In this document: in pieces, positions 1,115 to 44,414 of the stretch
Position numbering within the stretch: position 1 is the stretch's first letter
Layout of the letters: each line of letters opens with the position of its first letter
Assembly (NCBI GenBank): GCA_963845175.1
Contig: CAWJRI010000006.1
Location: forward strand, 1-44,848
Reading direction: 5' to 3'
Source of the DNA: an uncultured archaeon
GTDB lineage: Archaea; Nanobdellota; Nanobdellia; Woesearchaeales; CAIVOO01
DNA length: 44,848 bases
Position numbers and translations under genes: made by a program
The notes under the pieces: generated by a model
The model's input: only the letters and a program-made list of their open reading frames with translations
Databases searched by the model: none
Told to the model about the DNA's origin: nothing

Positions 1115-2032
1115 ATGATGTCAAGAAGAGAGTTTTTAAGATTGCTTGGTACAGGCGCTTTGGTTGTGGGGCTAATAGATTCTCCATTAATTTCTCCGCT
1201 AGAAAAAGTGGTTTCTTCTGCTTTTGCGCAAACAATCCCAAAGGATTATGACCATCAGGTACCAAATTGGAGAGAGATTTCAAAAGGACTTTATTTTGCA
1301 AGAGTTGATATTTATAATAAAGGCAAGAAAGTTGATACTGTTGCAGTTTCAAAAATAAATCCTGAGTTTAATCAGATAAGAGTATTCAACAGCTACGAAG
1401 GTCCTGAAAATTATGAATTGCTTACAATAGAAGATTGGAGGGACAGAACAAATGCAACAATTATGTTTAACAGCGCCCAATATATGGGAAGACCATATGC
1501 CTCTCCTTGTGCATTAATAATGTGCGATGGAAGAAAAAAAGGTCCCAAATTTAATAAAACTGCAAGAGGTATGCTTGTTGCAGAGCCAACAGATGAAAAA
1601 TTGCCGAAGGCTAACCTCCTTGATTTTGACTTTGACCATTTCGACCCAGACACAACTAAATATACTCAAGGTGTTCAGCACTGGCCTATATTACTTGATA
1701 AAAATGGCAACATAAAAGTTAAAAGAACAGACTGGCTGGCAAACAGGACAGTTGTTTCAAAAGATAGAGAAGGAGATATTGTAGTATTCACAACAGAAGG
1801 AGGCTATTTCACACTCTACGAATTTGGACGATTCTTAAAGGACAGCAACTTTAACATAGAATGCGCCATGAACATGGACGGCGGATATGAAGCTGAAATG
1901 ATTGTGAAGAGCAAAGATTTCAATTATGTAACCTACGGCCAGTTTGAAACTTACGGCCCGATGCACAATGCATCAATTCCCGGAGCAAGATGTAGAATTC
2001 CAGGAGTTATTGGAGTGTTCCCGAGAAAATAA
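1115..2032 (+). CDS. secreted phosphodiester glycosidase-family protein (NAGPA/DUF2233-like) with twin-arginine signal
   Basis: N-terminus MMSRREFLRLLGTGALVVG is a Tat-type signal. The C-terminal AMNMDGGYEAEM and overall layout resemble the phosphodiester glycosidase family. Confidence 0.55.
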   Translation: MMSRREFLRLLGTGALVVGLIDSPLISPLEKVVSSAFAQTIPKDYDHQVPNWREISKGLYFARVDIYNKGKKVDTVAVSKINPEFNQIRVFNSYEGPENYELLTIEDWRDRTNATIMFNSAQYMGRPYASPCALIMCDGRKKGPKFNKTARGMLVAEPTDEKLPKANLLDFDFDHFDPDTTKYTQGVQHWPILLDKNGNIKVKRTDWLANRTVVSKDREGDIVVFTTEGGYFTLYEFGRFLKDSNFNIECAMNMDGGYEAEMIVKSKDFNYVTYGQFETYGPMHNASIPGARCRIPGVIGVFPRK

Positions 2033-4108
2033 TCAGCTTGGAACTTTCTTAAAGAAACCTGCATTTTTTAAAACGCTTACTGTTGCGCCAACTCTTTTTG
2101 CATTTATTAACGAGTTTTCTTTCGGTTCTGGTACAGCATTAACAAAATCTAGCCCTCTTTTCTTAAGCTCCGCTTTAGCTGTGCCAGCTCCTGAATTATA
2201 ATACATATATGTACCTGCATTAAGCTGATCCTCTGTTAATGTGTCTTCACATTTTTTATTCCCGCAAAGACCAATTGACTGAGCATCACTTAAGAAGGTG
2301 TCTCTTCTTAATTTAAGTTCTGCACCAAATGCTTCAATTGCATAATCAACATTGTTAAAAATTGGGTAGGTCAGTTCAACTTTTCCGCCTGCTTCAGTTC
2401 TTTCGACAGTGGATGTATCAAATTCTTTAAAATCTTGTCTTAGATAACCTTTTTGTTTTAGCTCATTTATATCATAGACGAAATAATCCGTGCCTAAATA
2501 ATCAAAACCATCAACTGGCGCGGAAGGATCATCATAGTACCTTTTATCCATATACATATTAAGTCCTTCCTGGAAAACTGAAGCGGTAAGTAAATTTATA
2601 TCCAATCCTGTTCGTTCACTTGTTGCAAGCAGGGCGTTTACCACCCTCTCTTCACGTGCGTCATCAAAATATCCTGCAACAGCCATTGGAGCAATGCCCC
2701 ATTTATCTTCTGCATCTTGTTTAAATTTATCATAAGCAGCATGGTTGTTTGTCAACATTTCTCCAGTAGATGAAATTACATCAAGTGCCAAATCAGAAAA
2801 TTTTCCTATTTTTTTGCAGATGGAGCATTGCTCAATATCACTTTTTGAGATGCTTTGTGTGTGTATTTCTCCCTCTTCATCCTTCCATGTCAATGATATA
2901 TCTGTGCCCTTTGAAGCATCACCATAAACAACAACACCCCCCGGAGTTACATCATATTGTACGACTCCATTGTCATTATAAACAACGCGCCCGGCAGTAA
3001 CGCCTTTAACATTTAGAGAAGCAATATCCTTATTATATCTATTTACAACTAAATTATTATTTCCTGCGTCTCCAGATTGAGATATGCTCATATCATGTCC
3101 TACTACTGCGATGCAGGTCGCTAGTATGCCTGCGCAACCATCTTGTGTGTTATAATAAAGAAGAGGGGCATCACGTAGTGTTTCATAATGAATAGAACTT
3201 ATTACTGCATTAGTGTTCCAATCATATGTTTTATAATCCAGAGCTGTTTTGCCTGAGTTCACTCCAAAGTTCATATGTCCATCTCCATAAAAATTAACGG
3301 CCCCTCCTGAAATTGTCGCCCTTGTTTTTTCAGAAAGGTCAGTAATTTTAAGCTCCTTATAACCGCTTTCAACCTCAATAAAATTTTCCTTATTATTAAT
3401 CCCAAAATAAAATTCTGAGTCTGATGCAAAAATTTTATTACCGAATGTTACCACTGTTCTTACACCTTTTGGAGGAAATAAACTAATTATAACATTATAC
3501 TCGTTAGAAGATGTTGCGATAGCTGCGCCGGAAATTGTTATATCGCTATTTACTTCTATTTTTTTTCCATTAGACATTATTGTTGCCCCGGCAGGTATAA
3601 CTAATTCTCCCTTTGGTAAAACCTGCGGATTTGGCGGACCTTTAAAATCTGAAGGTACAAATTGAGTTGAGTGCTGTCCTTCTGTAATAATTATAGTACC
3701 ATCATAAAAATGTATCTTCGCACCTTGGTCGTCAATTCCAAGGCGAGCCAACCAAGCCTTTTTTGCATCGGGGTTATCGTTAACAATACTTGTATCTCCC
3801 TTAACATAAGTATCAAATACTTTGAAAACATCATTATTAGAAAGCAAATCAGATTTTGATTCCACTGCCCGAGCTAAATCAGTATAATCCAATTTTTCTA
3901 CGATAGATGGTTTTTGGCTAAGAGCGCCTGCAAGCTGCGAGCCGGTAATCACGCTGAAATCAAAAACTTTTCCTGTATCGATGGCATCTGCAAGTTTCTG
4001 CGGGTCTTTTGCTATATCCTGTACTTCCTTGTCTGTAAGCGGTTTTTCCTGCGCTAAAACTATGCCTGCTATAATCAATAGCAATAACAACATTATTGTT
4101 TTTTTCAT
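2033..4108 (-). CDS. large secreted protein (module 1, gene B), family unknown
   Basis: 691-aa ORF with Sec-type signal MKKTIMLLLLLIIAGIVLAQE. The central part is Gly/Asn/Thr/Val-rich and looks beta-rich; the C-terminal ~200 aa look globular. The start overlaps the stop of the upstream gene (4105-4108). Confidence 0.6.
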   Translation of the reverse strand: MKKTIMLLLLLIIAGIVLAQEKPLTDKEVQDIAKDPQKLADAIDTGKVFDFSVITGSQLAGALSQKPSIVEKLDYTDLARAVESKSDLLSNNDVFKVFDTYVKGDTSIVNDNPDAKKAWLARLGIDDQGAKIHFYDGTIIITEGQHSTQFVPSDFKGPPNPQVLPKGELVIPAGATIMSNGKKIEVNSDITISGAAIATSSNEYNVIISLFPPKGVRTVVTFGNKIFASDSEFYFGINNKENFIEVESGYKELKITDLSEKTRATISGGAVNFYGDGHMNFGVNSGKTALDYKTYDWNTNAVISSIHYETLRDAPLLYYNTQDGCAGILATCIAVVGHDMSISQSGDAGNNNLVVNRYNKDIASLNVKGVTAGRVVYNDNGVVQYDVTPGGVVVYGDASKGTDISLTWKDEEGEIHTQSISKSDIEQCSICKKIGKFSDLALDVISSTGEMLTNNHAAYDKFKQDAEDKWGIAPMAVAGYFDDAREERVVNALLATSERTGLDINLLTASVFQEGLNMYMDKRYYDDPSAPVDGFDYLGTDYFVYDINELKQKGYLRQDFKEFDTSTVERTEAGGKVELTYPIFNNVDYAIEAFGAELKLRRDTFLSDAQSIGLCGNKKCEDTLTEDQLNAGTYMYYNSGAGTAKAELKKRGLDFVNAVPEPKENSLINAKRVGATVSVLKNAGFFKKVPS

Positions 4109-5373
4109 TTTACCTTAAGCAGCATTAATGCCTCACTGTATCCGACATTATTGCCTACTGTGATTTTTATTGAATAATCACCTGTCTGATTTGGCATAAA
4201 ATTTATTTCTCCTGTTGTTGGGTTAATGTCAAACAGGCTTGTGTTATCTTCAAAGTATAAATATTCTTTGTAAGGGTCTGAAGCGTTAACCTTATAATAA
4301 AATGTTTTGTTTACAGCTGCGTCTAAAATAATTGTTGAGTTTATTGACGGAAGCAGATTCTTTTGCTCTATGTCAATAGTCATATAAGCTGTATCGCTAT
4401 TTCCATATTTATCTGTGGCAGTTATTTTTATTTCCCTAACGCCGTCCTCCCAACGGGTTGTATCAAAGGATATTGAACCATTTTTTGGGTCGATGTCAAA
4501 CATAGTTGTATCGTCATAAAATTTCAGGTCTGTTCCTCTGGCCTTGACTTGATATTTGAAGATCTGCGGCGCTGAGATTACAAATTCAGGAATTGGGTAG
4601 ATTTCGACATTTTTCTGAGGAAAAATAGCTGACCAGTTATATTTTACTTTTATTGGATAAATCAATGGCTTGTTTCTTAAGCTGGTGTTGAAGGTAAACA
4701 CATAAAAGACAATATCATCTGGAAAATTTATAACCTCAAATGTAAAATTATTTTTATATGCCAGGCCAGTTATTGAAGAGAATGGGATTGAATTTGGTGT
4801 TTTGTTTTGTTCGTCAATTATCTTTCTTATCAGGTTATATTTTTCATAAAAATTAATATCAACAGGAACAGAAAACTCATTCAAAACTGACAGCTGGTTG
4901 TCTTTTGTTATTTTTATCGGATAGTTGACATTAATAACTACATTTTTTGCCGCAATCGTTGAATTCACAGAAATATTTGAAGTTTCAAAATTGTAACCCT
5001 CTGTCCTGAAGTTTTCGAAATTATTAAGGCAATCCGAAAGGTTATTCTCTATATAGAGCGAAAGCTGCTTTTCAATAATTTCTTTTTTCGGCATTGTTTC
5101 TTTTCCTTCGTAAAAATAATATGGTATTCCGTAAGTGCCATTTATCTTATAGAACCCGCCTTTTGAGGAAATATCAAAAATGCCATCCTGAGCAACAGAA
5201 AGGATGCAGGAATCAACATAACCGCTTATCTTTTCCACAGGCAATTGATTGGCTTCAACTTTTAATTCCTTTTCTATTGCAAAGCTTCGCAAATAAAGAA
5301 CCAACCCCGTTGCAAACAAGATAATTATTCCAATCACCAAAAATATTGTTATCTGCCCTCTTTTGGGATGCAT
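4105..5373 (-). CDS. class III (type IV pilin-like) signal-peptide protein with two C-terminal cadherin-like Ig repeats (module 1, gene A)
   Basis: N-terminus MHPKRGQITIFLVIGIIILF has a KRG/Q prepilin-peptidase-like site followed by a hydrophobic helix. The N-terminal ~230 aa are paralogous to 9103..9885. Two repeats fit the pattern FDIxPxxGxIxF....Y.I.IT..D..G (FDIDPKNGSISF, FDINPTTGEINF). Confidence 0.6.
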   Translation of the reverse strand: MHPKRGQITIFLVIGIIILFATGLVLYLRSFAIEKELKVEANQLPVEKISGYVDSCILSVAQDGIFDISSKGGFYKINGTYGIPYYFYEGKETMPKKEIIEKQLSLYIENNLSDCLNNFENFRTEGYNFETSNISVNSTIAAKNVVINVNYPIKITKDNQLSVLNEFSVPVDINFYEKYNLIRKIIDEQNKTPNSIPFSSITGLAYKNNFTFEVINFPDDIVFYVFTFNTSLRNKPLIYPIKVKYNWSAIFPQKNVEIYPIPEFVISAPQIFKYQVKARGTDLKFYDDTTMFDIDPKNGSISFDTTRWEDGVREIKITATDKYGNSDTAYMTIDIEQKNLLPSINSTIILDAAVNKTFYYKVNASDPYKEYLYFEDNTSLFDINPTTGEINFMPNQTGDYSIKITVGNNVGYSEALMLLKVK

Positions 5374-5441
5374 TTAAGGATATTTTAAATCTAGTATATA
5401 TATAATTTACTGAATATTTATTTTCAATATTGAAATAATAT

Positions 5442-5460
5442 TTTATTACTGATAGGTAAC
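5442..5460. promoter_or_regulatory. imperfect palindrome TTTATTACT-G-ATAGGTAAC (candidate operator)
   Basis: Immediately precedes the BRE/TATA at 5461-5474. It is embedded in a ~60-nt block similar to 1024-1092. Confidence 0.35.
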
Positions 5461-5474
5461 GAAAGGTTTAAATA
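5461..5474 (+). promoter_or_regulatory. BRE/TATA-like promoter element GAAAGGTTTAAATA
   Basis: Lies about 36 nt upstream of ATG 5510 in an AT-rich divergent intergenic region. Confidence 0.5.
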
Positions 5475-5509
5475 CCTGTAATATAATCTAATACAACGTA
5501 TTGGCTAAA

Positions 5510-5644
5510 ATGAAGCACAACCTCAGCATAACCCTGGAAGAGGACCTTGTTCTAAAGATAATTGAAAAATCAAAGGAGCACAGGTTCAGGAACAGAAGCC
5601 ATTTCGTGGAGTGCGCTCTGAGGGAGTATCTGGAGGGAAAATGA
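5510..5644 (+). CDS. ribbon-helix-helix (CopG/MetJ-type) DNA-binding protein, 44 aa
   Basis: Not in the ORF track because it is under 60 aa. Hand translation: MKHNLSITLEEDLVLKIIEKSKEHRFRNRSHFVECALREYLEGK. The layout is beta-strand (LSITLEEDL), helix, then the NRS-HFVECALREYL helix typical of RHH proteins. Its stop overlaps the next ATG (ATGA at 5641-5644). Confidence 0.6.
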   Translation: MKHNLSITLEEDLVLKIIEKSKEHRFRNRSHFVECALREYLEGK

Positions 5645-6507
5645 AGCTGAAGAACTGGTTAATAGCTGCAGGATTTCTTGTACCTTTTGTAGCTTGCACT
5701 CCAGCAAAAGCAGTAAATCCAGATGACCCTGTTGGAAATGTTATTGGCAATTATTGCAAAAATATTATTGAAGAATCGATGGGAAAATTTGTATTCACTA
5801 AAAGCAGGGAAGAAAAAATAAAGCTTGTGAAAGATTTAAGCAAATGTATTGAAGTTCCTGAAACGCATGAAGAGCTTGAACAAAAACTAATCAATGAAGG
5901 ATACATTTACCGCCAAAATCTTTTTGGAAAAATAACAGAGCCAATAAAAACAGTAGTTGACAATGGAAATAAGTATGATGTCATAATTTATAAGCCATTA
6001 ACATCAATAGATAATTCTTTTGACAATCCAAGCGCATTTAATGTGTATAGAAAGATATTTGTTAATGAGAAAGCTGTAAAAGACCTTGTTGGTGGAGTTT
6101 TTGAACTCTATAAAGTCAAGGATTTGGATGTTTTTTCTGTAAGAATCAATAAAAAATTTTACAATTCATTAAAAGGGAAGGATGACAAAGAAACATGGCA
6201 GAATTTATACAACGACATCTTTGAGAATTATGTACAGCACGAGCTTGAACATTTGAGAAACAAGGACGAAGGAAACAATGTGCCAAGCGAAGTGAAGGCT
6301 TATGTCGGCTCGTTCATAAGAGCGCCGTCTTATAATACCTTCATAGATTTAGATTATCTCGAAGGAGTAAAAGATTCTATTTGCGGAAAAGCCGGAAAAA
6401 GAATATTTGATTTGTTTGAAGTCCATGGCGTGCCCAAGAAAAAAATTCCGGACATGTCTCTTGAAGAGCTGAAGAAAGTCGCAGAAGAGATTTACAAGGA
6501 GTTGTGA
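5641..6507 (+). CDS. signal/anchor-bearing HExxH protein, putative zinc metallopeptidase (paralog 1)
   Basis: The likely start is MKLKNWLIAAGFLVPFVAC, a hydrophobic and lipobox-like N-terminus; the track ORF begins at an upstream non-ATG codon at 5611. Motif QHELEHLRNKDE is followed by SEVKAY..APSYNTFIDL and RIFDLF. Clear paralog of 6512..7333. Confidence 0.6.
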   Translation: MKLKNWLIAAGFLVPFVACTPAKAVNPDDPVGNVIGNYCKNIIEESMGKFVFTKSREEKIKLVKDLSKCIEVPETHEELEQKLINEGYIYRQNLFGKITEPIKTVVDNGNKYDVIIYKPLTSIDNSFDNPSAFNVYRKIFVNEKAVKDLVGGVFELYKVKDLDVFSVRINKKFYNSLKGKDDKETWQNLYNDIFENYVQHELEHLRNKDEGNNVPSEVKAYVGSFIRAPSYNTFIDLDYLEGVKDSICGKAGKRIFDLFEVHGVPKKKIPDMSLEELKKVAEEIYKEL

Positions 6508-6511
6508 TAAA

Positions 6512-7333
6512 ATGAAACTGAAGAATTGGTTAATTGCAGGAGGAATTATTGCAGCTTTGGCAGCTTCAGCTGTGCACAAGAAGCTAAATTACTGCCAGAA
6601 CCACATCGAAGATGTGATGAAAAAGTATGTCATGGCTTCTCCCCAGGAAAGAGGGGAAATGTATGGTGAGTTTGGCGAATGCCTGAAAGTTCCTGACACG
6701 ATTGAAGAATTCCTGCAGGAATTGGAGGACAAAGGCTATGTATGCACAGATGGATTTTTCGGAAAGATAACAGAGCCGATTAGAACAATAACTGACAATG
6801 GAAAAGAATACAAAGTAATCATGTATAATTCAATAGCGGATAGGCGTAATATTACAGCCACTCACAGCGTTAACAGAATATTGCTTGATAAAAAATTCAT
6901 TGATGGGGAAGTTAGCGATATAGTCCAATGGGGCGAATCAAACACGCCAAATAATGATATTTCAGCCAAACTAAAACTTCAGTTTTATAATTCCCAAAAA
7001 GGCGAAAATAACAAAGAAGCACGCAGCAATATATACAACAGCATTGTGGAAAATTACACTCAGCATGAAATGGAGCATATAAGAAATGGCGACCGAGAAT
7101 CGACTGTAAATGCTGAAATAAAAGCGGATCTTAAATCATTAATCAAAGCTCCATCATACAACACTTTCATAGACCTAGATAGTTTTGAAGCAGAAGGAAG
7201 CCCGATTTACAGTGAAACCGCAAAAAGAATATTTGATGAATTTGAAAAACACGGCGTACCGAAAGAGAAGATTCCAGAAACTTCTTTGGAAGAATTAAGC
7301 AGGGTTGCTGGAGAAATTTACAGAGAACTCTGA
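6512..7333 (+). CDS. signal/anchor-bearing HExxH protein, putative zinc metallopeptidase (paralog 2)
   Basis: N-terminus MKLKNWLIAGGIIAALAASA. Carries FGKITEPIRTITDNGKEYKVIMY, QHEMEHIRNGD, APSYNTFIDLD and RIFDEFEKHGVPKEKIPETSLEEL. Collinear with paralog 1. Confidence 0.6.
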   Translation: MKLKNWLIAGGIIAALAASAVHKKLNYCQNHIEDVMKKYVMASPQERGEMYGEFGECLKVPDTIEEFLQELEDKGYVCTDGFFGKITEPIRTITDNGKEYKVIMYNSIADRRNITATHSVNRILLDKKFIDGEVSDIVQWGESNTPNNDISAKLKLQFYNSQKGENNKEARSNIYNSIVENYTQHEMEHIRNGDRESTVNAEIKADLKSLIKAPSYNTFIDLDSFEAEGSPIYSETAKRIFDEFEKHGVPKEKIPETSLEELSRVAGEIYREL

Positions 7334-7354
7334 ATTATTTTATTACTGTCATTT

Positions 7355-9106
7355 TTATTTAGGCATCTGAGTTGCTTCTGCCTCGTTTATTGTCCCGGTT
7401 TCAGCCTGTCTTTTTAGAACTGTTATTATGCTTGGTGTACGTTTCTCTTGTCCAGCTGAGCCAAGAACCGTTCCTTCAGATGGAGATTTATCGACAATTA
7501 CTTCTGGCGAAGGTAAAGATAATGTTATTATTTGTGTAGTCTGGTCCTGATGAAAACCATGAATTGTCTTTACCGGCTCGCCTTCAGGATTTTTAGGATC
7601 TACAAAATTCAAATCTGAGCCATCCGTGGATAATGTGTACTCTCCTGAAGGTAATTTAGGTAATAATCCCGCACATGCTTGGTCTGTGCCGGTTTTTAAA
7701 TTTTTACACATTATTTCTCCATCTATTGTTTCTTTAACCTGATAGTTTTGGGTATTGAATATTTCGCCTAATGCAACACTCATATCAGAAAATTTAGAGC
7801 AAGTTCCTGTAACTGTACATTGCAGCTGTTCAGCCATTCCGGTTATCCATCTTGTTGCAGCGCCTGTGGTTGCTCCGCCTCCTGCTGGGCAATAATTAAC
7901 TTCTTCTATACCTGCAGTATCAGTATCTATTGTAATTGTCCCTCCATTTAAATCAAGCGGTTTTGTTCCGTCGTCACTTACTGGCTGCAAATCAATTGGC
8001 ACAGTCCCTTCTGTATCTGAAGGATTTGTATTCCTTGTATACACTTCATCATTAACGACTGCTGTTGTTGTCCCCCCATTTTCCATGACCCCGTTAATGG
8101 CAACAGTAGCAGGCTTGCCTGTAGTTGCAGACGTTAGTTCGGCATATTTCGCTGGTCCTAACTGTATATTGCCAATTACACCTTTAATGTAATCAGTGTC
8201 TCCTGTAAACTCCTCCACGCCCCCAATATTATGCGCTTCAAATTTGTCTCTTGTCATAATTACATAAGCTCCTGATGTGTCACACTGGGTTTTTTCCGGG
8301 CATATAGAAAACTCCTCGCTGGGTAAAAGACTCCTAAGTGCTAGGGAGGCATGAACTAAAAAAGTAATAGGTGTATAATCTACATAATTTATAGCACCTC
8401 CGCAAGTAAGGGGTGTTTGGCCAACCAATGGGCAGTTGGTATGTACATAAAGTTTGCCGTCTTTTGACATAACTTCCCCTTTTTCCCCCATGTCAACGCT
8501 ACTTCCATCAGGCAGTACAAACAATTCGACCTGCGCATTGCTTCCTGTAAGTACCGTGAGTTGTAAATTCATATTGCTTGGAAATGCCGCCCTTCCGTCT
8601 GTGATTGTAAGTCTATTTGATTCTGTAGTATAATCAAATTTTGTTCCGCCGGTTAACAGCACATCTGCTACGTTTCCTGATCCAGTTCCTGAAACAGTTC
8701 CAGATAGTGTTCTACTCAAGCCACCGTAAGTTACCGATTCTACATTTGTCACATGAGTTCCTTCGACTACGCCGTCTTTTATGGAAAACTTGCCGTTGCT
8801 GTCGACTTGTACGCCCGTCCCCGATTGGAACGTAACGCCATTAACGTTTGCATCTGTCAAGTCCATTGTTCCATCCTGTTCAAACTTTATTGTATCTGGA
8901 GTGATTATCTTCACGCCAGAAGGCAAGATAACCGGAAGATTTTGTGAAGGGTAGATGGAGCTTCCCTTGTAATCGCCAGGAATCACGCAGTTTCCTGTAG
9001 TGGGACATTGCCCTGTTTTTGTATCAAATGTTGTAGTTACATTTTCAGCCATTGCTGTGAATGCTAGCAGTATCATCATAATCATTGAAATTATCCCCAG
9101 TTTCAT
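7355..9106 (-). CDS. large secreted protein (module 2, gene B), family unknown
   Basis: 583-aa ORF with signal MKLGIISMIMMILLAFTAMAE. Gly/Thr/Val/Asn-rich with scattered Cys pairs. The start overlaps the upstream gene's stop (9103-9106). Confidence 0.6.
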   Translation of the reverse strand: MKLGIISMIMMILLAFTAMAENVTTTFDTKTGQCPTTGNCVIPGDYKGSSIYPSQNLPVILPSGVKIITPDTIKFEQDGTMDLTDANVNGVTFQSGTGVQVDSNGKFSIKDGVVEGTHVTNVESVTYGGLSRTLSGTVSGTGSGNVADVLLTGGTKFDYTTESNRLTITDGRAAFPSNMNLQLTVLTGSNAQVELFVLPDGSSVDMGEKGEVMSKDGKLYVHTNCPLVGQTPLTCGGAINYVDYTPITFLVHASLALRSLLPSEEFSICPEKTQCDTSGAYVIMTRDKFEAHNIGGVEEFTGDTDYIKGVIGNIQLGPAKYAELTSATTGKPATVAINGVMENGGTTTAVVNDEVYTRNTNPSDTEGTVPIDLQPVSDDGTKPLDLNGGTITIDTDTAGIEEVNYCPAGGGATTGAATRWITGMAEQLQCTVTGTCSKFSDMSVALGEIFNTQNYQVKETIDGEIMCKNLKTGTDQACAGLLPKLPSGEYTLSTDGSDLNFVDPKNPEGEPVKTIHGFHQDQTTQIITLSLPSPEVIVDKSPSEGTVLGSAGQEKRTPSIITVLKRQAETGTINEAEATQMPK

Positions 9107-9885
9107 GCTAACCTCAAAGGAGCCAGCTTCACAGCGTAGCTGAATTCATAAGGATTGTTCCTTACTGTCACAACATCATCTGTTAATTTAATGTATTCCA
9201 TGTCGTCGTAATACTTATTTTCAAACCTTAAATTATTTGTAACTGATTGTAATGTCAGACAGCTTAAACAAAGCATGTCAGGAGTTTTACTCTGGTCGTT
9301 CATCAGTATTCCGACTGCGTCAAGAATCTTGCCAAGCCTTACATTGACACTTGTCTCATAGTCGGGCACAACAGCTGTTGCTGTCCCTCTTTTCATTGTC
9401 ACTGGATAGTTCAGTTTCAAAGATACCTGGTCAGAGCTAATTGTAATATTTGGAGAGATTTTCCCGGCTGTTATCTCGTATCCCTGCGCCTTGAAGTTCG
9501 TGAAGTTCTGGAGGCAGCTGTCCAGGTTAAAGTATATATAGTTGCCTATCTCGCTTTCTACAACATTCTTCTGCGGCATTATTGTCTTGTTAATGTAATA
9601 CCAGTAATAAACATCAGTGCCGTTGTATGTCATCGAAGGCAGCGGGACAGGATCCATAAATCCGCCTGTCTTGCCCACTTGAATTATTGCATCCTCGCCA
9701 GTTGATTTAAGGCAGAGCTCAACATAACTCTTCAATTGCGCTGTTTCAATTGTTCCGGTTGTAGTTGCCGGCTCAATTGTTTTTTTCACAAGAAAGCTTC
9801 TGGCGTAAAGTGCTGCGCCTATAACAAACAAAATGATTATTCCAATTATTAAAAAAGTCGTTATCTGCGCTCTTTTTGAAAGCAT
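9103..9885 (-). CDS. class III (type IV pilin-like) signal-peptide protein (module 2, gene A)
   Basis: N-terminus MLSKRAQITTFLIIGIIILF. Aligns by eye with 4105..5373 over YV..C, GGF, YYWY..K.IMPQK, NLDSCLQNFTNFKAQGY, LNYPV and QSKTPD. Confidence 0.6.
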   Translation of the reverse strand: MLSKRAQITTFLIIGIIILFVIGAALYARSFLVKKTIEPATTTGTIETAQLKSYVELCLKSTGEDAIIQVGKTGGFMDPVPLPSMTYNGTDVYYWYYINKTIMPQKNVVESEIGNYIYFNLDSCLQNFTNFKAQGYEITAGKISPNITISSDQVSLKLNYPVTMKRGTATAVVPDYETSVNVRLGKILDAVGILMNDQSKTPDMLCLSCLTLQSVTNNLRFENKYYDDMEYIKLTDDVVTVRNNPYEFSYAVKLAPLRLA

Positions 9886-13418: not shown

Positions 13419-15104
13419 ATGATTCTTAAATCAATCAAGCTGAGCAACATAAGAAGCTATCTTAGCCAGGAAATCAAGTTTCCAGAGGGCTCGCTTCTTC
13501 TTTCAGGAGACATAGGCTCTGGCAAGTCAACAATACTCCAGGCTATTGAGTTCGCGCTTTTCGGCATTCTCAAAACGGACCTATCGGGAACGTCCCTTCT
13601 TAGAAGAGGAAAAAACTCCGGCAGCGTTGAATTGAATTTTGAAATTGATGGAAAAAACATAATAATAAAGCGTGTGTTGAAGGCTTTGAAGGATTCTGTA
13701 AAGCAGGATGCCGGCTACATAGTGATAAATGACATGAAATATGATTTGACGCCGACAGAGCTCAAGACAAAAATCCTTGAACAGCTCGGCTATCCAGATG
13801 AATTAGTCACAAAATCAAAATCATTGATTTACAGGTACACAGTTTACACGCCCCAGGAGGAAATGAAGCACATTCTTTTCGAGGACAAAGGCGCAAGACT
13901 TGACACACTGAGGCGCGTTCTGGGGATTGACAAGTACAAAAGAATAGCTGAAAACGCCGGAATTCTCATCAAAAATCTCAAAGAGCAGAAAAAGGAGCTG
14001 GGCGGAAAAATCTTTGATCTGGAGGACAAGCTGAAGCAGAAAGGGAAGCTTGAGGCTGAGATAAAAGAGCTAAAGAAGAAAATCGATGCAATAATGCCGA
14101 AGTACAGCGAATTCAGGAAAGATATAGACTCAAAAAAAGCTGTCCTGCAGGAGTTCGAGGACAAAATAGTCAAATTAAACAACCTGAAAAGGGAACTTGA
14201 GGTAAATGACACAAAGATTGACGCTGTTGCAAGGAGAAAAGAGGCAAATGTGAAGGAAACCGGCGGGCTTCAGAAGCAGATTAAGGAAATTAACGAAAAA
14301 GTAAGCGGAATAAAGATAAAAAAATTTGATAATAATGAAGAGGAGATTGAAAAACAGCTCAGGGGGCTTGAAACTGACTTTTTAACTGCATCAAAAAGGG
14401 TTTCGGAACTTGTCGAAAAACATTCCTCAGGCAAAAAAAGAATCGAGGAGCTGAAAAAAGAGGTAGACTTGTGGCTTGAAAAATCAAAATTATTGATTGA
14501 AAAGGAAAGCCTGCTGAAATTGCTGAGGCAGGACATGATTGGAAAAAAAGAAATTGAAAAAAAACTTGATGAGTCAGAAAATGAATTTCTGAAGCTTACA
14601 AAAATGCTGGGTGAATACGGTGCGCTGAAAAAACACTCTTCTGAAACAAAGGAAAAAATAAAAGGCATGAACAGCTGCCCGACATGCTTCCAGCCTGTAA
14701 ATGAAAATCACAAGTGCAAGATTGATCTTGAAGAAAGCAGGAAAATAGAGTCATATAACAAGCAAATGGATGAGCTGGGAAAGAGGAAAGATAATTTTTT
14801 AGGCGAGCTTGAAAGGCTGAAAAAAACGCTGAAGGAATTTGAAGAAAAGGAGAAAAAAATTGAAAGGCTGCAGGCGGAAACAGACAGCCTGAAATTGATG
14901 AACGAGGCGCTTGGAGAAAAACAAACGCTGCTCTCAAAGCTTCTTCTGGAAATTCCTGCAATTGAGAGGGAAATAGGCGCAAAAAACATTGAGGACGAGA
15001 AGAAAAAACTTGAGGAAAAAAAGCTCCTGCTGAAGGCGATTCAGGCGCAGAAAACGCTTGTTAAGGAAAAGAGATGCTTTCAGCGCTCTGCCAGGAAAAG
15101 ATGA
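13419..15104 (+). CDS. rad50: Rad50-type SMC ATPase, N-terminal fragment (Walker A, coiled coil, zinc hook)
   Basis: Starts MILKSIKLSNIRSY with Walker A GDIGSGKST. A long K/E-rich coiled coil follows, with the CxxC hook MNSCPTCFQPV. The frame ends inside the second coiled-coil arm. Confidence 0.8.
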   Translation: MILKSIKLSNIRSYLSQEIKFPEGSLLLSGDIGSGKSTILQAIEFALFGILKTDLSGTSLLRRGKNSGSVELNFEIDGKNIIIKRVLKALKDSVKQDAGYIVINDMKYDLTPTELKTKILEQLGYPDELVTKSKSLIYRYTVYTPQEEMKHILFEDKGARLDTLRRVLGIDKYKRIAENAGILIKNLKEQKKELGGKIFDLEDKLKQKGKLEAEIKELKKKIDAIMPKYSEFRKDIDSKKAVLQEFEDKIVKLNNLKRELEVNDTKIDAVARRKEANVKETGGLQKQIKEINEKVSGIKIKKFDNNEEEIEKQLRGLETDFLTASKRVSELVEKHSSGKKRIEELKKEVDLWLEKSKLLIEKESLLKLLRQDMIGKKEIEKKLDESENEFLKLTKMLGEYGALKKHSSETKEKIKGMNSCPTCFQPVNENHKCKIDLEESRKIESYNKQMDELGKRKDNFLGELERLKKTLKEFEEKEKKIERLQAETDSLKLMNEALGEKQTLLSKLLLEIPAIEREIGAKNIEDEKKKLEEKKLLLKAIQAQKTLVKEKRCFQRSARKR

Positions 15105-15883
15105 ACAGGGCAGATGCGCTTACAAAGGAGGAAAATGAAATAAAACAGCTGATGGATGAGCTGAAGCAGAAGAGAATAAAAACAGAAAATGAGATAGAAA
15201 GCTTCAAAGACATAGAGAAAAAATTCATTGAGGCAAGAAAAGAGCTGGAAGACACCCTTGAAAAATCGAAAAGCACAGAAATAAAAAAAGCAGAGCTTGA
15301 CAAGGAAAAAGAGGGGCTTGACAAAATTTTAATGACTCTTGGCACTGAAATAAAAATAAAGAACGAGGCAAAAGACTTAATTGTCGGGCTGTCTGAAAAG
15401 CAGTACTGGCTTGAGGAGTTCTTTGTCAAACTGATGTTTGAAATGGAAAAGCACGTGATGAACTCTGTCAGAATTGAGTTTAACGAGCTGTTCCAAAGAT
15501 GGTGCGCGCTTCTCCTGGAAGATGAGGCAATCTCAATAAAGCTTGATGAGGAATTCGCGCCAGTTGTTGAGCAGAACGGCTACCAGACAGAGCTGTGGGA
15601 CATGTCTGGCGGTGAAAAGACATCCTGCGCGCTGGCCTACAGGCTTGCATTGAACCGTGTGATAAACAACATGATGTCAACAATCAAGACGAGGGACATA
15701 ATCATCCTTGACGAGCCGACTGACGGATTCTCAACAGAGCAATTGGATAAAGTAAGGGATGTCCTTGAACAGCTGAATGCGAGGCAGGTAATAATCGTTT
15801 CCCACGAGGCAAAGCTCGAATCATTTGTGCAGAATATAATGAAGATAGAGAAAGAAGGGCATGTCAGCAGGGTTTTAAGCTAA
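15074..15883 (+). CDS. rad50: Rad50-type SMC ATPase, C-terminal fragment (signature motif, Walker B)
   Basis: Coiled coil, then signature MSGGEKTSCALAYRLAL, Walker B/D-loop IIILDEPTDGFS and the H-loop region VIIVSHE. It continues the previous ORF in another frame. Confidence 0.8.
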   Translation: MLSALCQEKMNRADALTKEENEIKQLMDELKQKRIKTENEIESFKDIEKKFIEARKELEDTLEKSKSTEIKKAELDKEKEGLDKILMTLGTEIKIKNEAKDLIVGLSEKQYWLEEFFVKLMFEMEKHVMNSVRIEFNELFQRWCALLLEDEAISIKLDEEFAPVVEQNGYQTELWDMSGGEKTSCALAYRLALNRVINNMMSTIKTRDIIILDEPTDGFSTEQLDKVRDVLEQLNARQVIIVSHEAKLESFVQNIMKIEKEGHVSRVLS

Positions 15884-37408: not shown

Positions 37409-37497
37409 CGGGCCGGACGGGATTTTCAAGCTTGTTTTTGAACCCGCGACCACCTCATTAAAAGTGAGGTGCGCTAGCCAGACTGCGCTACCGGCCC
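37409..37497 (-). tRNA. tRNA-Lys (anticodon UUU) with a 14-nt intron in the T-loop
   Basis: Minus strand: GGGCCGG TA GCGC AGTCTGGCTA GCGC A CCTCA CTTTTAA TGAGG TGGTC GCGGG [TTCAAAAACAAGCTTGAAAAT] CCCGT CCGGCCC G. All stems pair. The T-loop is 21 nt instead of 7, and TTCAA/TTGAA form a helix. No encoded CCA. Confidence 0.85.
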
Positions 37498-39115: not shown

Positions 39116-40078
39116 TTACTCTTTAAAATTAATATAATCAAATAATCTGAAACACTGTTGTAGAGCATCATTTGAAACTTTTTTTATTTCATCATATTCA
39201 ACAACATCTCCTTTTAACTCTTTTTCGAGTATTGGATTAATCCAGCTAAAAATTCTGACAGCGCTTATTTTGTCTTTTTTAGCTTTTATCTCACTAATAT
39301 TTTCTTCATTTTTCATAAAATCTTCGCTAAGATATTTCAAATCATTAGGAAAATCAATTTTAGCATATATTTTCGTCATTTCTGTATAGGGTGTGGGACC
39401 GTTGGCCAATGTGATTAGATTAGCAAAAAATTCGGAATCTACTGCTTTTTTTACATCTTCTTTGTTTTTGCCAAATAACTTTTCAAAAAATAGGTGACCA
39501 ACTTCATGTATCAAAACAGTTGAAAAATAGGCGCCTTTAATCTGTGTAAGGTCGTTCTCGTGAATATTTAAATTTGCCAAATCTTTTTTTGTCATCTTAG
39601 TGAAAAAATTTTCAATTTTTAAATTTTCAATTATTTCTGTTGCAGATTGCTTTAACAAGTGAGAGTTAATATAAATGCCTCCTCTAGAATAAAAAGCGTC
39701 AGATTGTCTTTCAATTTTTTCAGTAATTTCAGTTAAATCAAATGAAAAATGTAATCCATATAACTCAACTGTGGTTTTAAAAACGCCAAATTTATGTTTT
39801 AAAAAATCAAAAAATTTGTCCGCTTCATCTCTTTCACTTTCTTCATTTAAAACAGTTTCATCTATTGATTCGGATTTGACAGGTTCAGTATTAGAAGCAG
39901 TCATTAAAGGTGCAGACTTATGCTGTGTAGTTTTAGGATCTTTAGATCTAGAATAAATTGATAATCCTGCGGCTCCTGAAGCGAGTGCAATTGCTGCTAA
40001 GACTCCTACTAATCCTTTTCTAAACTTTGAATTCTTTTTCTGTTCTTCAAGAAATTCACCATATGTTTGGTTTTTCAT
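39116..40078 (-). CDS. membrane-anchored HExxH protein, putative zinc metallopeptidase (paralog 3 of 5641..6507 / 6512..7333)
   Basis: TM anchor GLVGVLAAIALASGAAGLSIY and motif LIHEVGHLFFEKL. The downstream SEFFANLITLANGPTPYTEM, AVRIFSWI and YDEIKKVSNDAL are collinear with SEVKAYVGSFIRAPSYNTF, GKRIFDLF and LEELKKVAEEI in the tandem pair. Confidence 0.55.
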   Translation of the reverse strand: MKNQTYGEFLEEQKKNSKFRKGLVGVLAAIALASGAAGLSIYSRSKDPKTTQHKSAPLMTASNTEPVKSESIDETVLNEESERDEADKFFDFLKHKFGVFKTTVELYGLHFSFDLTEITEKIERQSDAFYSRGGIYINSHLLKQSATEIIENLKIENFFTKMTKKDLANLNIHENDLTQIKGAYFSTVLIHEVGHLFFEKLFGKNKEDVKKAVDSEFFANLITLANGPTPYTEMTKIYAKIDFPNDLKYLSEDFMKNEENISEIKAKKDKISAVRIFSWINPILEKELKGDVVEYDEIKKVSNDALQQCFRLFDYINFKE

Positions 40079-40098
40079 TATATACAGTAGAATAAAGT

Positions 40099-40115
40099 TA
40101 TATATAAATCTTTCT
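40099..40115 (-). promoter_or_regulatory. BRE/TATA-like promoter element AGAAAGATTTATATATA
   Basis: On the minus strand, about 21 nt upstream of ATG 40078 (leaderless geometry). The 15-mer AAATCTTTCTATTTT is identical to the reverse complement of 1072-1086. Confidence 0.5.
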
Positions 40116-40121
40116 ATTTTT

Positions 40122-40137
40122 GTTACTTAAAAGTAAC
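40122..40137. promoter_or_regulatory. perfect palindrome GTTACTT-AA-AAGTAAC (candidate operator)
   Basis: 7-bp inverted arms, located between the TATA at 40099-40115 and a second TATATAAAA box at 40141-40149. Related to 1052-1070 and 5442-5460. Confidence 0.4.
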
Positions 40138-40154
40138 GAATATATAAAAGAGTA

Positions 40155-40610
40155 TTAGTATGTCACGCCAGGGCACTGTACGTATTGGTTTTTCTTGTCC
40201 TTCTCATTGTAATCTATGCTCATTGTCGCTGTAATTGTCATTTTAAGATTCGGAGCAACATTCACCTGCTCGCCGTATCCGTGTGTCACATAGGACCATT
40301 GTGAAGTTTCCGGTGAAGAAGCTGTTCTTGTGCAGGTGCGCATAACATTGTCAATTTCCCATCCGCCGCAGGAGAACTGGTCAGGCGCAGTTGTTCCAAC
40401 TGTTGGGTTTGTTGAGATGAAAAATACAGCGCCTTCTGAGCCTGTCATTATGCCGGCTACTCTTATTTCATAAGCCCTTGCATATTTTGCGCCCATGTCA
40501 TGAAGAGTTCCCTTGACTATCCCTTCATATTTTTCAGTTATGATGCAGGAGTAATTTGCGAACTGGACAGAAGCTGTCTTCTCAGCTGGCTGAGTTTGAT
40601 GCTCAACCAC
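40155..40610 (-). CDS. hypothetical protein, probably 5'-truncated at the composition junction
   Basis: 151-aa frame that can only begin at GTG 40610, with an in-frame TAG at 40622-40624. It has no signal peptide or promoter, although it is Cys-containing and looks secreted. AT-rich codon usage matches the archaeal part. Confidence 0.45.
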   Translation of the reverse strand: MVEHQTQPAEKTASVQFANYSCIITEKYEGIVKGTLHDMGAKYARAYEIRVAGIMTGSEGAVFFISTNPTVGTTAPDQFSCGGWEIDNVMRTCTRTASSPETSQWSYVTHGYGEQVNVAPNLKMTITATMSIDYNEKDKKNQYVQCPGVTY

Positions 40611-40649
40611 ACTTTGATTGGCTACGCTTGTATTTTGTCCATTGTCTGA

Positions 40650-41327
40650 CTGCTCCTTGCATCAAAGCTCTGCGTGGCTTCATAGGGGAAGGTCGCGCCA
40701 TCAAGATGCCCTTGGCCAGACCATCCTGCGTTTCAGCAGGCGGCACAGGCAACGGCACGGCGCCGAGCGCGGGAATAACCTGCGCAAATTGCTCACCCGC
40801 ATAGCGGATGCGCAGGCCCTTGAAGTCGGCGATTGTTGTAATCTTCTGGCTTGGATGTATGGAACATCAGCGGATTGGTGACAGCCATCCAGAGAATTTC
40901 TTCAGGCCGTTATGTTCGGCGGCGAGAAATTCGGGAGCCAGTTCCGTCAGGCGCTTCGAGGTGACCACGCTATGCTCGCCAGCTTTGGGATGCACATAAG
41001 GCAGGCTGACGAGTTCGGTCGTGGGATAGCGACCAGGCGTTGCGCCGTGCAAGCCAACCGCAATATCGGCCACGCCCGAGCGCGCGAGATCAAACTGGCG
41101 ATTGACTGGACCGAGTTGTGAAGCGGGAAAAATATTGACTTCAAACGGCCGCCCGATTTTTCAGACAGTTCTTCGCCCCAACGCACGAGTTCCTTCTGGA
41201 ACGTGTCGTTCGGCGGAAGATAATGGGAGACCTTCAGCTCAACGGTCTGAGCAGCGGCAAAAGTGCAGGATGCGATCAGTGTGGCGGACGCGATGCTTCC
41301 AGCGAGCGCGCGACAAGTCATGCTCAT
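40650..41327 (-). pseudogene. TRAP-transporter periplasmic solute-binding protein (DctP family), frame-broken and 3'-truncated
   Basis: AAGGAGG lies 6 nt upstream of ATG 41327. Signal peptide MSMTCRALAGSIASATLIASCTFAAAQ, then VELKVSHYLPPNDTFQKELVRWGEELSEKSGGRL. It continues in other frames as ADIAVGLHGATPGRYPTTELVSLPYV...TSKRLTELAPEFLAAEH, then ITTIADFKGLRIRYAGEQFAQVIPALGAVPLPVPPAETQDGLAKGI and DGATFPYEATQSFD. About 100 aa of the C-terminus are missing. Confidence 0.7.
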
Positions 41328-41473
41328 GGTGTTCCTCCTTGCTTTCCTCTTCCTGATCGGCCGGGTCACTCTTTGGTGCGCCTGTACCGTATCATGGACT
41401 AGAGTACCGCATGGCGATACCCCGTCAAGCAGGAGGGCGAATTCTCGCCCCCCTCCCATTGGTAGCCCTGTGC

Positions 41474-42245
41474 TTAACGCGCCATGGCGGAGCGGATCCG
41501 CTTGCGGAAGGCTTTGAGCTGGCGAGACAAATCGTCTTTCTGCTCATCAAACCGTTGCGAGGGGACAGATGGAACGGCCACCGGGGCGTCCCATTGTGTC
41601 GAGCAGAGCAATGCCAACGGCTGAAATGCCTTCGCCATGTTCCTCAAGATCAAAAGCCAGATTGGTCTTGCGGATCTCCTCAAGCTCGGCATGCAGTTTG
41701 GCGCGATGCTTCAACGGAAAATCCGGATGCTCAGCCAAGCTCTTGTCGATGAGCTCTTCGGCATCTTCAGGCGAGAAGCAGGCTAGGATCGCTTTGCCAT
41801 TGGCTGTGCAGTGCAGCGGAAAGCGCTCGCCGACGGCCGAGACGGCCACCAGCCGATGGCGGCCAGGAACCTGGTCAACAAAAACCGTGGAGCCGCCTGA
41901 CAAGACCGCCAGATCAACTGTTTCGCCGACTTCTTCGCCCAGCGTGCGCAAATAGGGGCGGATGATATCCGCCGTGTTAGAGCCCACAGATGCTGCGATG
42001 CGAACAAGAGCAGGGCCGATGCGCACATCGCCCGGACCGGATGCAATGACCAAGTCTTCCGCCGCAAGCGCGGCGACAATGCGCTGCACGGTCGAGCGTG
42101 CCAGATCGACAGATTTGGCAATCTGCCCAAAACTCAGCCCGTCCGGATGGTTCTCAAGTGTGCGCAAAATGCTGGCCGCTCGCGCGATCACTTGGATGCC
42201 GACTTGCGTACCGTTCTTTTCTTCAGGATCTTTGACGTCCTGCAT
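41474..42245 (-). pseudogene. IclR-family transcriptional regulator with one frameshift near the C-terminus
   Basis: AGGAGG precedes ATG 42245. wHTH segment LSFGQIAKSVDLARSTVQRIVAALAAEDLV and effector domain RFPLHCTANGKAILA...EEHGEGISAVGIALLDTMGRP. The expected end VAVPSVPSQRFDEQKDDLSRQLKAFRKRIRSAMAR is in the ORF 41474..41692 frame. Confidence 0.8.
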
Positions 42246-42420
42246 TCTTCCTCCTTCGACCGGCCTTGAACGCGCCTGGGAAAAACCGCGCGACAGCCGA
42301 TTGACCGTCATATGGTACATGCGTATCGTATCATGGACCACAAGAAATTTGGCGGCGATCAGCTGCAAAAAAGATAGGCGGCAATTCCGCCGCGGGATGA
42401 AGCGCAAACGGAGGACGATT

Positions 42421-44413: not shown

Positions 44414-44414
44414 A

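Follow-up and report, generated by a model that had tools for sequence, protein, structure and literature searches.

The window analyzed here is a 44,848-nucleotide stretch of DNA (contig CAWJRI010000006.1, Woesearchaeales) from a tiny symbiotic DPANN archaeon. It contains two neighbouring gene pairs, with all four ORFs on the minus strand, and in each pair a gene for a pilin-like protein (A) precedes a gene for a secreted partner (B). These genes, their segments and the adjoining plus-strand genes are as follows (nucleotide positions are those of the window).

A2: 9103-9885, minus strand, 260 aa, pilin-like protein with a class III-type signal
A2 leader: aa 1-6, nt 9868-9885, minus strand
A2 hydrophobic helix: aa 7-27 (Q7-Y27), nt 9805-9867, minus strand
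A2 linker of low conservation: aa 37-48
A2 globular alpha+beta A domain: aa 49-260, nt 9106-9741, minus strand
B2: 7355-9106, minus strand, 583 aa, secreted partner of A2
B2 Sec-type signal: aa 1-20, nt 9047-9106, minus strand
B2 conserved N-terminal module: aa ~29-222, nt 8441-9022, minus strand
B2 middle and C-terminus: 3' of the N-terminal module, unique, Thr/Gly-rich, C-terminal anchor absent
Unit between the two pairs: 5510-7333, plus strand, RHH regulator, C1 and C2, lineage-specific
RHH regulator: 5510-5644, plus strand, 44 aa
C1: 5641-6507 (from 5611 if the start is GTG), plus strand, secreted or lipobox protein with an HExxH motif
C2: 6512-7333, plus strand, paralogue of C1, secreted or lipobox protein with an HExxH motif
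A1: 4105-5373, minus strand, 422 aa, paralogue of A2
A1 leader: aa 1-6, nt 5356-5373, minus strand
A1 hydrophobic helix: aa 7-27, nt 5293-5355, minus strand
A1 A domain: ending at aa ~250, nt 4624-5241, minus strand
A1 two Ig-like repeats: aa ~251-422, nt 4108-4623, minus strand
B1: 2033-4108, minus strand, 691 aa, secreted partner of A1
B1 Sec-type signal: aa 1-19, nt 4052-4108, minus strand
B1 conserved helical N-terminal module: aa ~33-180, nt 3569-4012, minus strand
B1 middle and C-terminus: 3' of the N-terminal module, unique
NAGPA-like phosphodiester glycosidase: 1115-2032, plus strand, Pfam NAGPA E=2.3e-13, twin-arginine-type N-terminus

The ORFs of this two-pair layout were found at exactly the coordinates given in the original prediction, and the ATGA overlap of stop and start codons that it described occurs at both A-B junctions. 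The proposed paralogy of A1 and A2 was recovered as 32% identity over residues 1-250 (E=3e-44), with every quoted motif present. Pairwise comparison of B1 and B2 revealed no similarity (best E=0.16), in agreement with the claim that the two partners are dissimilar. The Gly/Thr/Asn/Val-rich composition ascribed to both B proteins applies to B2 (T 13.2%, G 11.0%) and, to a mild degree, to B1.

The A domain defines a family of 7,386 clusters at 50% identity, and the named genomes that carry it are nearly all Woese-, Pace- or Nanoarchaeota MAGs. The two A proteins of the window begin with MHPKRG, continued by QITIFLVIGIIILF, and with MLSKRA, continued by QITTFLIIGIIILF. A signal motif of this kind was found in 156/159 family representatives, with the consensus K-[KR]-[G/A/S] before the putative cleavage site (Gly in 114, Ala in 24 and Ser in 17), Q-[IV]-[T/S]-x-F after it and a hydrophobic helix following (n=156). 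The +1 Gln is invariant (156/156), the -1 residue is G/A/S in 155/156 and the -2 residue is K/R in 150/156; the distance from the Met to the Gln is 4-6 residues in 130/156. Conservation peaks in segment 4-27, at 2.55 bits as compared to 1.7-2.0 for the globular part. The class III-like signal claimed for A is thus supported by the frequency of the motif, its conservation, the small -1 residue and the invariant Gln. No class III signal or pilin N-terminal model from Pfam or NCBIfam matched A1, A2 or 100 family members at E<=1, and weak TadE/G-like N-terminal matches were seen in five members (E>=0.085). EppA-type pilins of M. maripaludis have leaders of 5-13 residues that end in Gly, and their signature is a conserved +1 Gln together with a +5 Glu (PMC3875500). 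In the A family, position +5 is Phe in 145/156 members and Glu is never in the consensus. This Phe, as compared to the Glu of bacterial and methanococcal pilins, counts against a pilin-like reading of A; the +5 Glu is also missing from Sulfolobus and Haloferax pilins (PMC3875500).

The AlphaFold2 model of A2 is confident (pLDDT 94.4) and consists of a helix (3-36), a linker (37-48) and an alpha+beta domain. C58 and C124 are conserved at 99% in the family, and no conserved catalytic-type residues were found in its conservation profile. The claim that A belongs to no described family held in every library searched: the sequence had no match in Pfam, NCBIfam, PHROGs or PDB sequences, and the modelled fold had none in Foldseek searches of PDB and BFVD. 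The A family, with its thousands of sequence clusters, is unnamed in these libraries. In the model, a flexible linker parts the helix from the globular domain, whereas the helix of classic pilins continues into that domain; this also counts against the pilin-like reading.

In the case of A1, which is 96% identical to its orthologue in the related locus L084, the additional C-terminus consists of two internal repeats that align with each other at E=6e-8. The cadherin-like Ig repeats originally proposed for this region are a reasonable assignment but only weakly shown in A1 itself, where He_PIG, PKD and Big_13 matches fell below threshold (He_PIG 20.6 bits, cut-off 24). He_PIG passed the gathering threshold in the homologue P0013 (30.9 bits), and other A-family members of ~430-445 aa carry He_PIG or Big_9 domains.

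A neighbourhood census of relatives bore out the claim that A-B adjacency is conserved. A large same-strand ORF with a Sec signal directly follows A in 72/81 evaluable loci, whereas a large ORF on the same strand comes next after control genes in 61/391 cases (16%; p~5e-48), and the A-B junction is most often a 4-nt overlap. B subtypes track A subtypes: the B partner of the nearest A relative was related in 55/72 cases, against a background of 6%. This co-diversification could come from simple linkage instead of physical contact. Two or three A-B modules were present within 8-13 kb in 13 loci, and the two modules of the window fall within 8 kb.

The N-termini of the window's B proteins are Sec type I-like, MKKTIMLLLLLIIAGIVLA before QE and MKLGIISMIMMILLAFTAMA before EN, with cleavage sites placed by eye; together with the sizes of 583 and 691 aa, they match the large Sec-signal partner that had been described. 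A Sec-like N-terminus was present in 69/73 B proteins, and the last 60 residues lacked a hydrophobic stretch in all 51 complete B proteins. Across loci, B proteins measure between 450 and >1,900 aa. Between near-identical strains, B2 orthologues are only 26-31% identical, as compared to 74-85% for A2 orthologues and 92-93% for a neighbouring gene, which is the pattern expected from the proposed conserved anchor with variable cargo. DNA similarity to L084 ends ~40 nt into B2 and restarts at the next gene. The conserved part of B is confined to its first 120-190 residues, and B2 has the N-terminal ~190 aa in common with its orthologues and nothing beyond. The B1 N-terminal module recurs in B proteins that follow an A of ~440 aa in L052, L067 and L023, where it is joined to C-terminal domains other than that of B1; beyond these three, no further B1 homologues were found. 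B2 matched no family, the B1 C-terminus matched no hydrolase in Pfam, PDB or PHROG, and no Pfam domain was detected in B1, in B2 or in ten further B proteins. A single-sequence AlphaFold2 model of B1 (pLDDT 40.5) was too poor to use.

As had been noted, the window encodes no pilus ATPase, platform protein or prepilin peptidase (Pfam scan of 27 ORFs), and motif scans found none within ~6 kb of ~87 loci. The lack of linked pilus machinery counts against the pilin-like reading of A. In six loci (L002, L024, L041, L018, L083 and L053), A-B is followed by four or five small genes that encode K-[G/A/S]-Q and a hydrophobic helix; the window has no such small pilin-like genes after its A-B pairs.

We give about even odds (probability roughly 0.5) to the reading that A is a pilin-like adaptor and B the variable adhesin or effector that it presents at the surface. 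Each pair would be one copy of a two-gene surface module that is widespread in Woese-, Pace- and Nanoarchaeota and whose probable role is the cell-surface display of variable binding proteins. A would be a type IV pilin-like protein with a basic leader of 3-5 residues ending in G/A/S, which a prepilin (class III signal) peptidase probably cuts to expose the invariant Gln and a hydrophobic helix of ~21 residues. Through this helix A may be embedded in the membrane or built into the core of a fibre resembling a pilus or pseudopilus, and the flexible linker would bear a disulfide-stabilised, non-enzymatic globular domain with a fold not seen among solved structures. B would be produced from A's transcript via translational coupling and exported by Sec; with no membrane anchor of its own, it would be held by docking of its conserved N-terminal module onto the cognate A domain. 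The fast-diversifying middle and C-terminus of B would then be the exposed functional end, which may bind host cells or a substrate or act as an enzymatic effector. Modules would duplicate and diverge as units and thereby give several A-B specificities per cell, here A2-B2 and an inserted A1-B1 with Ig spacers.

Among the closest likenesses to this adaptor arrangement are the archaeal class III signal-peptide proteins, EppA/PibD substrates that include M. maripaludis Epd pilins and the non-pilin sugar-binding proteins of Sulfolobus. A resembles them in its very short basic leader with a small end residue, in the hydrophobic helix directly after the cleavage site and in having its N-terminus most conserved, and it has the +1 Gln in common with EppA substrates (PMC3875500). 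A differs from them in its +5 Phe, in matching no Pfam class III or pilin model, in a globular domain without a known fold relative, in a near-obligatory large Sec-exported partner, and in having no linked ATPase, platform protein or peptidase. A pilin-type N-terminus with large globular cargo domains is already known (bioRxiv 10.64898/2026.04.22.720090). The bacterial minor-pilin/PilY1 (PilC) tip complexes (PilK/GspK-family, TadG/CpaL) likewise encode a pilin-like protein together with a large Sec-signal adhesin, are accompanied by small pilin-like genes as are some A-B loci, and occur as several sets per genome, as in M. xanthus (PMC7541494). In these complexes a minor pilin holds the PilY1-type adhesin non-covalently (PMC13533445). 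However, the docking element of PilY1 is a conserved strand at its C-terminus, the end that varies in B, where conservation lies at the N-terminus; the B proteins scanned with Pfam (B1, B2 and ten more) had neither the PilY1/PilC C-terminal propeller nor DUF2341, and PilK/GspK have no sequence or fold similarity to A. Modular type IV pilins such as S. sanguinis PilB and PilC add modules to a pilin-type N-terminus (PMC8179133), as do A1, with its Ig-like repeats, and family members of ~340-1,080 aa. Those pilins fuse the functional module, whereas A mostly receives its variable module in trans from B.

The operon of YpeB and SleB in Bacillus has the same layout, an N-anchored, non-enzymatic alpha+beta protein with a Sec-exported and probably dependent partner. 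By analogy, A might be an uncleaved N-terminal signal anchor that, tethered to the membrane and forming no filament, is dedicated to chaperoning or inhibiting a secreted enzyme, B. YpeB and SleB are mutually dependent, with PepSY domains embracing the enzyme (bioRxiv 10.64898/2026.06.01.729290), and a 'double PepSY-like' cluster in a list of DPANN-specific 'dark matter' might be the A family (PMC6393860). The absence of pilus machinery linked to A-B would also fit. We consider a chaperone role unlikely, however, because a plain signal anchor needs neither an invariant Gln, nor a small -1 residue, nor a fixed leader of 4-6 residues, and because six loci have co-operonic small pilin-like genes. 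The gene order is reversed in A-B, PepSY was unmatched in A1, A2 and 100 family members, with no fold match, and a lytic or other enzyme domain was not found in B1, B2 and ten more B proteins.

It is improbable that A and B form a two-component envelope lattice, with B as an S-layer-like canopy on a membrane stalk A, analogous to SlaA/SlaB of Sulfolobales. In favour of a lattice, a large anchorless secreted protein adjoins a small membrane-anchored one, the pair is common across the lineage, and B2 is rich in Thr while A1 has numerous N-glycosylation sequons. But SlaA/SlaB typically occupy a single locus and their stalk has a C-terminal transmembrane helix, whereas the A anchor is N-terminal with a pilin-type motif and several modules share a locus, with unrelated B types in one genome. 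The range of B lengths also speaks against a lattice, and a lattice-forming protein would not usually diverge between near-identical strains as far as B2 does. The conserved N-terminus and variable C-terminus of B, and the B1-type modules with exchanged C-terminal domains, recall polymorphic secreted toxins or effectors, in which a trafficking module carries variable toxin domains against host or competitor cells; A would then be an export or presentation adaptor. This appears the most improbable reading, since the B proteins scanned showed no toxin or enzyme domain, and B is followed by convergent genes rather than by a small immunity-like gene on its own strand.

The presumed lifestyle of DPANN archaea is attachment to other microbes, and the Woese- and Pacearchaeota are abundant and uncultivated. 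The pilin-type signal, the confident but unmatched fold, the near-obligatory pairing and the divergence of B down to ~30% identity beside neighbours at >90% make the A-B proteins concrete candidates for host recognition, and these features provide a simple sequence rule for locating further candidates in metagenomes. Nanoarchaeal genomes contain a pilus ATPase to which earlier surveys could assign no cognate pilins (PMC4858521). We tentatively suggest, as a rather doubtful extension of the adaptor reading, that A-B modules supply the hitherto elusive pilins of type IV filaments in Woese-, Pace- and Nanoarchaeota, along with the adhesins at their tips. A would represent a new pilin globular fold that recruits, via the N-terminal docking module of B, interchangeable fast-evolving adhesins that decide to which host cells an episymbiont attaches. 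If so, module number and B diversity would offer a genomic read-out of episymbiont host range.

The unit of RHH regulator and C genes that separates the two pairs is also found, convergent to B2, in three relatives (L084, L001 and L088) with 1-3 copies of C, and was absent from distant A-B loci; a functional tie to A-B is possible. The NAGPA-like gene converges on B1 and directly adjoins the stop codon of B1. Its homologues are likewise convergent with and abutting B in L033 and L009, which makes this gene a recurrent neighbour of the B1 subtype.

The two gene pairs of shared architecture proposed for the minus strand were recovered with all four ORFs at their predicted boundaries, each consisting of a pilin-like upstream gene with a class III-like signal (A1, A2) and a large secreted downstream partner (B1, B2).

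9103-9885, minus strand, A2, ORF of 260 aa
7355-9106, minus strand, B2, ORF of 583 aa
4105-5373, minus strand, A1, ORF of 422 aa
2033-4108, minus strand, B1, ORF of 691 aa

At both A/B junctions the sequence ATGA places the start codon of B over the stop codon of A. The upstream genes are paralogous, as originally predicted (32% identity over residues 1-250, E=3e-44), and their downstream partners are dissimilar (best E=0.16). Two further details of the original prediction held in part. Two internal repeats make up the extra C-terminus of A1 (E=6e-8), but their matches to the Ig-type families He_PIG, PKD and Big_13 are sub-threshold; a 429-aa A1 homologue passed the Pfam threshold for He_PIG. 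The described richness in Gly, Thr, Asn and Val applies to B2 (Thr 13.2%, Gly 11.0%), whereas B1 is only mildly enriched.

Genes following A were surveyed in related loci to assess whether the pairing is conserved. For 81 A genes, 600 nt or more of downstream sequence was available, and 72 of these were directly followed by a large ORF on the same strand. Such an ORF had to start -60 to +150 nt from the A stop codon and encode 400 aa or more (180 aa or more for ORFs running off the contig end). Other genes in the same loci had such a neighbor in 61 of 391 cases (15.6%; binomial p~5e-48). The median gap from A to B is -4 nt, with a 4-nt overlap at 25 junctions, and, as in the window, clusters of two or three A genes fit into 13 kb in thirteen loci. 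The B proteins range from 451 to more than 1,900 aa. A Sec-like signal is present at the N-terminus of 69/73, and no hydrophobic stretch was observed within the last 60 residues of the 51 complete proteins; the B protein of locus L002 has one transmembrane segment, upstream of that region. Pfam searches with ten B proteins returned no domain beyond one weak Ig match.

The class III-like signal proposed for A was found in 156 of 159 representatives. In these 156 sequences, position -3 is K in 133, -2 is K or R in 150, -1 is G (114), A (24) or S (17), and +1 is always Q. The Gln is followed by I/V, T/S, any residue, F (145/156), three aliphatic residues and G, and lies 4-6 residues from the Met in 130 members. 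Residues 4-27 are the best-conserved segment of A (2.55 bits per column, compared to 1.7-2.0 in the globular part and 1.0 in the linker). A plain signal anchor would require neither an invariant Gln, nor a small residue at -1, nor a leader of fixed length. In EppA-processed pilins of M. maripaludis, the leader spans 5-13 residues with Gly as its last residue, and the +1 Gln is conserved (PMC3875500). These pilins carry Glu at +5, where the A family has Phe; the +5 Glu is also missing from Sulfolobus and Haloferax pilins (PMC3875500).

In loci L002, L024, L041, L018, L083 and L053 the A-B pair is followed by four or five small genes with a K-[G/A/S]-Q motif, among them an 87-aa candidate major pilin found in L002. 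The extended operon in these loci (9182-17107 in L002) consists of A, a Cys-rich B of 1,200-1,700 aa with the mature N-terminus 'CCEK/CCTN', a pilin-like protein of ~160 aa, a protein of ~300 aa with the N-terminus K-[G/A]-Q...QFNWIF, and two more pilin-like proteins of ~160 aa. Regular expressions for the FlaI/PilB Walker A motif and GxGD-type peptidases, which are crude scans, gave no matches across the related loci. The predicted absence of pilus machinery from the window was also borne out, with no secretion ATPase, platform protein or A24 peptidase domain detected by Pfam in its 27 ORFs.

The AlphaFold2 model of A, built from a 100-sequence alignment (pLDDT 94.4, pTM 0.81), has a helix spanning residues 3-36; a linker of lower confidence (37-48) connects it to an alpha+beta domain of long helices packed on antiparallel sheets. 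Foldseek searches with this model returned no convincing relative in the PDB (best E 0.012, TM<=0.18) or in BFVD (TM<=0.24). C58 and C124 reach 99% conservation, pointing to a disulfide bond and to an extracellular location. The family shows no obvious conserved residues of catalytic type, so A resembles a structural or binding protein more than an enzyme. A double PepSY assignment for the A domain (the ~230-aa domain common to A1 and A2), a lead taken from PMC6393860, was rejected: no PepSY match was obtained in A1, A2 or 100 family members, and the top Foldseek matches had TM<=0.2.

A profile built from A1, A2 and four orthologues was run against 1.84 billion representative proteins and matched 7,386 clusters at E<=1e-3, with 4,777 remaining at E<=1e-10. 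The A domain always starts at about residue 2 in these matches, and typical lengths are about 250, 340-445 or about 1,000 aa. In agreement with the original prediction, A matches no described family in the libraries searched: A1 and A2 have no Pfam, NCBIfam or PHROG match, no convincing structural relative was returned by Foldseek, 100 members searched individually against Pfam gave nothing above noise, and the profile matched no PDB sequence. The database names of ten members are all 'hypothetical protein' or absent. A viral origin was dismissed on the basis of zero PHROGs matches, the low BFVD scores and a housekeeping, syntenic context. A scan of one genome per species confirmed at least 435 A copies, and the best 80 of these are labelled nearly all Woesearchaeota, Pacearchaeota or Nanoarchaeota, with some 'uncultured Methanosarcinales' and one Dojkabacteria. 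The contig with the L048 A-B pair (JAFCCB010000047.1) was binned with the CPR bacterium Candidatus Dojkabacteria; sixteen further pairs bear the label 'uncultured Methanosarcinales', at GC contents of 29-50%. These labels are probably binning or labelling artefacts, the alternative being cross-domain transfer.

The subtypes of A track those of B. Ig-repeat A proteins of ~440 aa pair with B proteins having the B1 N-module, and A proteins of about 630 aa pair with B proteins longer than 1,300 aa; a related B was found beside the nearest A relative in 55/72 cases, compared to a background of 6%. Orthologous loci were compared by global identity among the window, L084 and L088, and between each of these and L001.

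Flanking MJ1341-like gene: 92-93% among the three; 73-74% to L001
A2 orthologues: 74-85% among the three; 68-76% to L001
B2 orthologues: 26-31% among the three; 26-30% to L001

The anticipated combination of a conserved anchor with a variable cargo is thus apparent in the first three loci, where A2 stays far closer than B2 beside a nearly constant flanking gene. DNA similarity between the window and L084 spans A2, ends ~40 nt into B2 and returns at the next gene. In the case of the other pair, identity to L084 is 96% for the A1 orthologue and 65% over the first 258 residues of B1. In iterated profile searches, the similarity of B1 and B2 to any other B was confined to their first 120-190 mature residues, with the remainder unique to each. 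The B1-type N-module continues into a different C-terminal domain in L052, L067 and L023. That conserved domain (in B proteins at L052 7275-9497, L067 7417-9609 and L023 2362-4512) has the motifs TTTII..GDNA.TA.S, GCYI.NSRD and TGHH and has no family assignment. A word-index search with B1 matched only B1 itself, and its single-sequence AlphaFold2 model was unusable (pLDDT 40.5). A C-terminal lytic transglycosylase in B1 (aa ~440-691), suggested by eye from 'QEG...' and 'YYNSGAG', was set aside as unsupported when Pfam (E<=10), PDB (E<=10) and PHROGs searches all came back empty. The extreme divergence of B fits diversifying pressure on a surface protein, for example from host recognition or from the need to evade viruses or competitors.

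The simplest model suggested by these sequences casts A as a pilin-like adaptor for a cognate variable cargo, B. A would be processed between G/A and Q of its K-R-G/A-Q motif, and its hydrophobic helix would hold the protein in a membrane or filament. B, translationally coupled to A, would be Sec-exported without an anchor of its own and is predicted to dock onto A through the conserved N-module. The pilus part of this model is weakened by the lack of linked assembly machinery, as judged by Pfam in the window and motif scans of the related loci, and by the apparently flexible linker between the modeled helix and globular domain of A. Both pilus tip adhesins and cargo-bearing class III signal proteins are already known. 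The pairs do not belong to the PilY1-type tip-complex families: B lacks a PilY1 domain, and its conserved region lies at the opposite end. The main rival, by analogy, is that A is an uncleaved anchor serving as chaperone or inhibitor of a secreted enzyme B, as YpeB acts on SleB (bioRxiv 10.64898/2026.06.01.729290); no PepSY or hydrolase homology was found. It is less likely that A and B form an S-layer-like pair, or that B is a polymorphic effector.

The fold and family of A, its strict coupling to a hypervariable Sec-exported partner, and its restriction to Woese-, Pace- and Nanoarchaeota all appear undescribed in the libraries and literature searched. Clusters in a 2019 list of DPANN 'dark matter' may overlap the A family (PMC6393860), and Makarova et al. 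noted one clade of pilus ATPase in nanoarchaea without identifiable cognate pilins (PMC4858521). The A-B modules are of clear interest for research on DPANN symbiosis, with their function as yet a candidate only.

The window is archaeal, encoding TFIIB, split RNA polymerase subunits and ribosomal protein S7, and on syntenic contigs of close relatives A2 lies next to form III RuBisCO, diphthamide synthase and the MJ1341-like gene. Two further elements adjoin the pairs.

5510-5644, plus strand, RHH gene of 44 aa, followed by the paralogous genes C1 and C2 (region 5510-7333)
1115-2032, plus strand, NAGPA-family phosphodiester glycosidase with a twin-arginine-like N-terminus, convergent with B1 and abutting its stop codon

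C1 and C2 are 43% identical and have no Pfam match. C1 has a lipobox-like N-terminus (FVAC), and both have a conserved HExxH (HELEH/HEMEH), motifs that could mark them as secreted metallopeptidases. In relatives, one to three C copies occupy this place, convergent to B2. A1-B1 with the convergent NAGPA-like gene is present in the window and L084 and missing from L088, L001 and one further relative contig, a patchy distribution that indicates insertion or loss among close relatives. NAGPA-like homologues occupy the same position after B in distant loci (L033 7276-8232, L009 8756-9751), and the gene may encode a surface-glycan enzyme linked to the B1 subtype.

The Rad50/SbcC-like ATPase at 13419-15883 (plus strand), a single 821-aa gene in a syntenic relative, is divided here between two overlapping ORFs, one of 561 aa with the AAA_23 N-terminus and one of 269 aa with the SbcC Walker B C-terminus. 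The split is probably a frameshift or sequencing error. ARAGORN found no tRNA in the whole window; Rfam gave a 59-nt tRNA match at 37439-37497 (minus strand) that barely exceeds the threshold (31.5 bits), possibly an archaeal tRNA that is truncated, split or interrupted by an intron. The GC content is 33-43% in the first 30 kb, 43-50% over the RNA-polymerase genes (30-36 kb) and 52-58% at 40001-44848, where an IclR-type regulator (41547-42443) and a putative cyclase (41962-43263) overlap on opposite strands. This high-GC segment is possibly a chimeric assembly join or horizontally acquired bacterial DNA.
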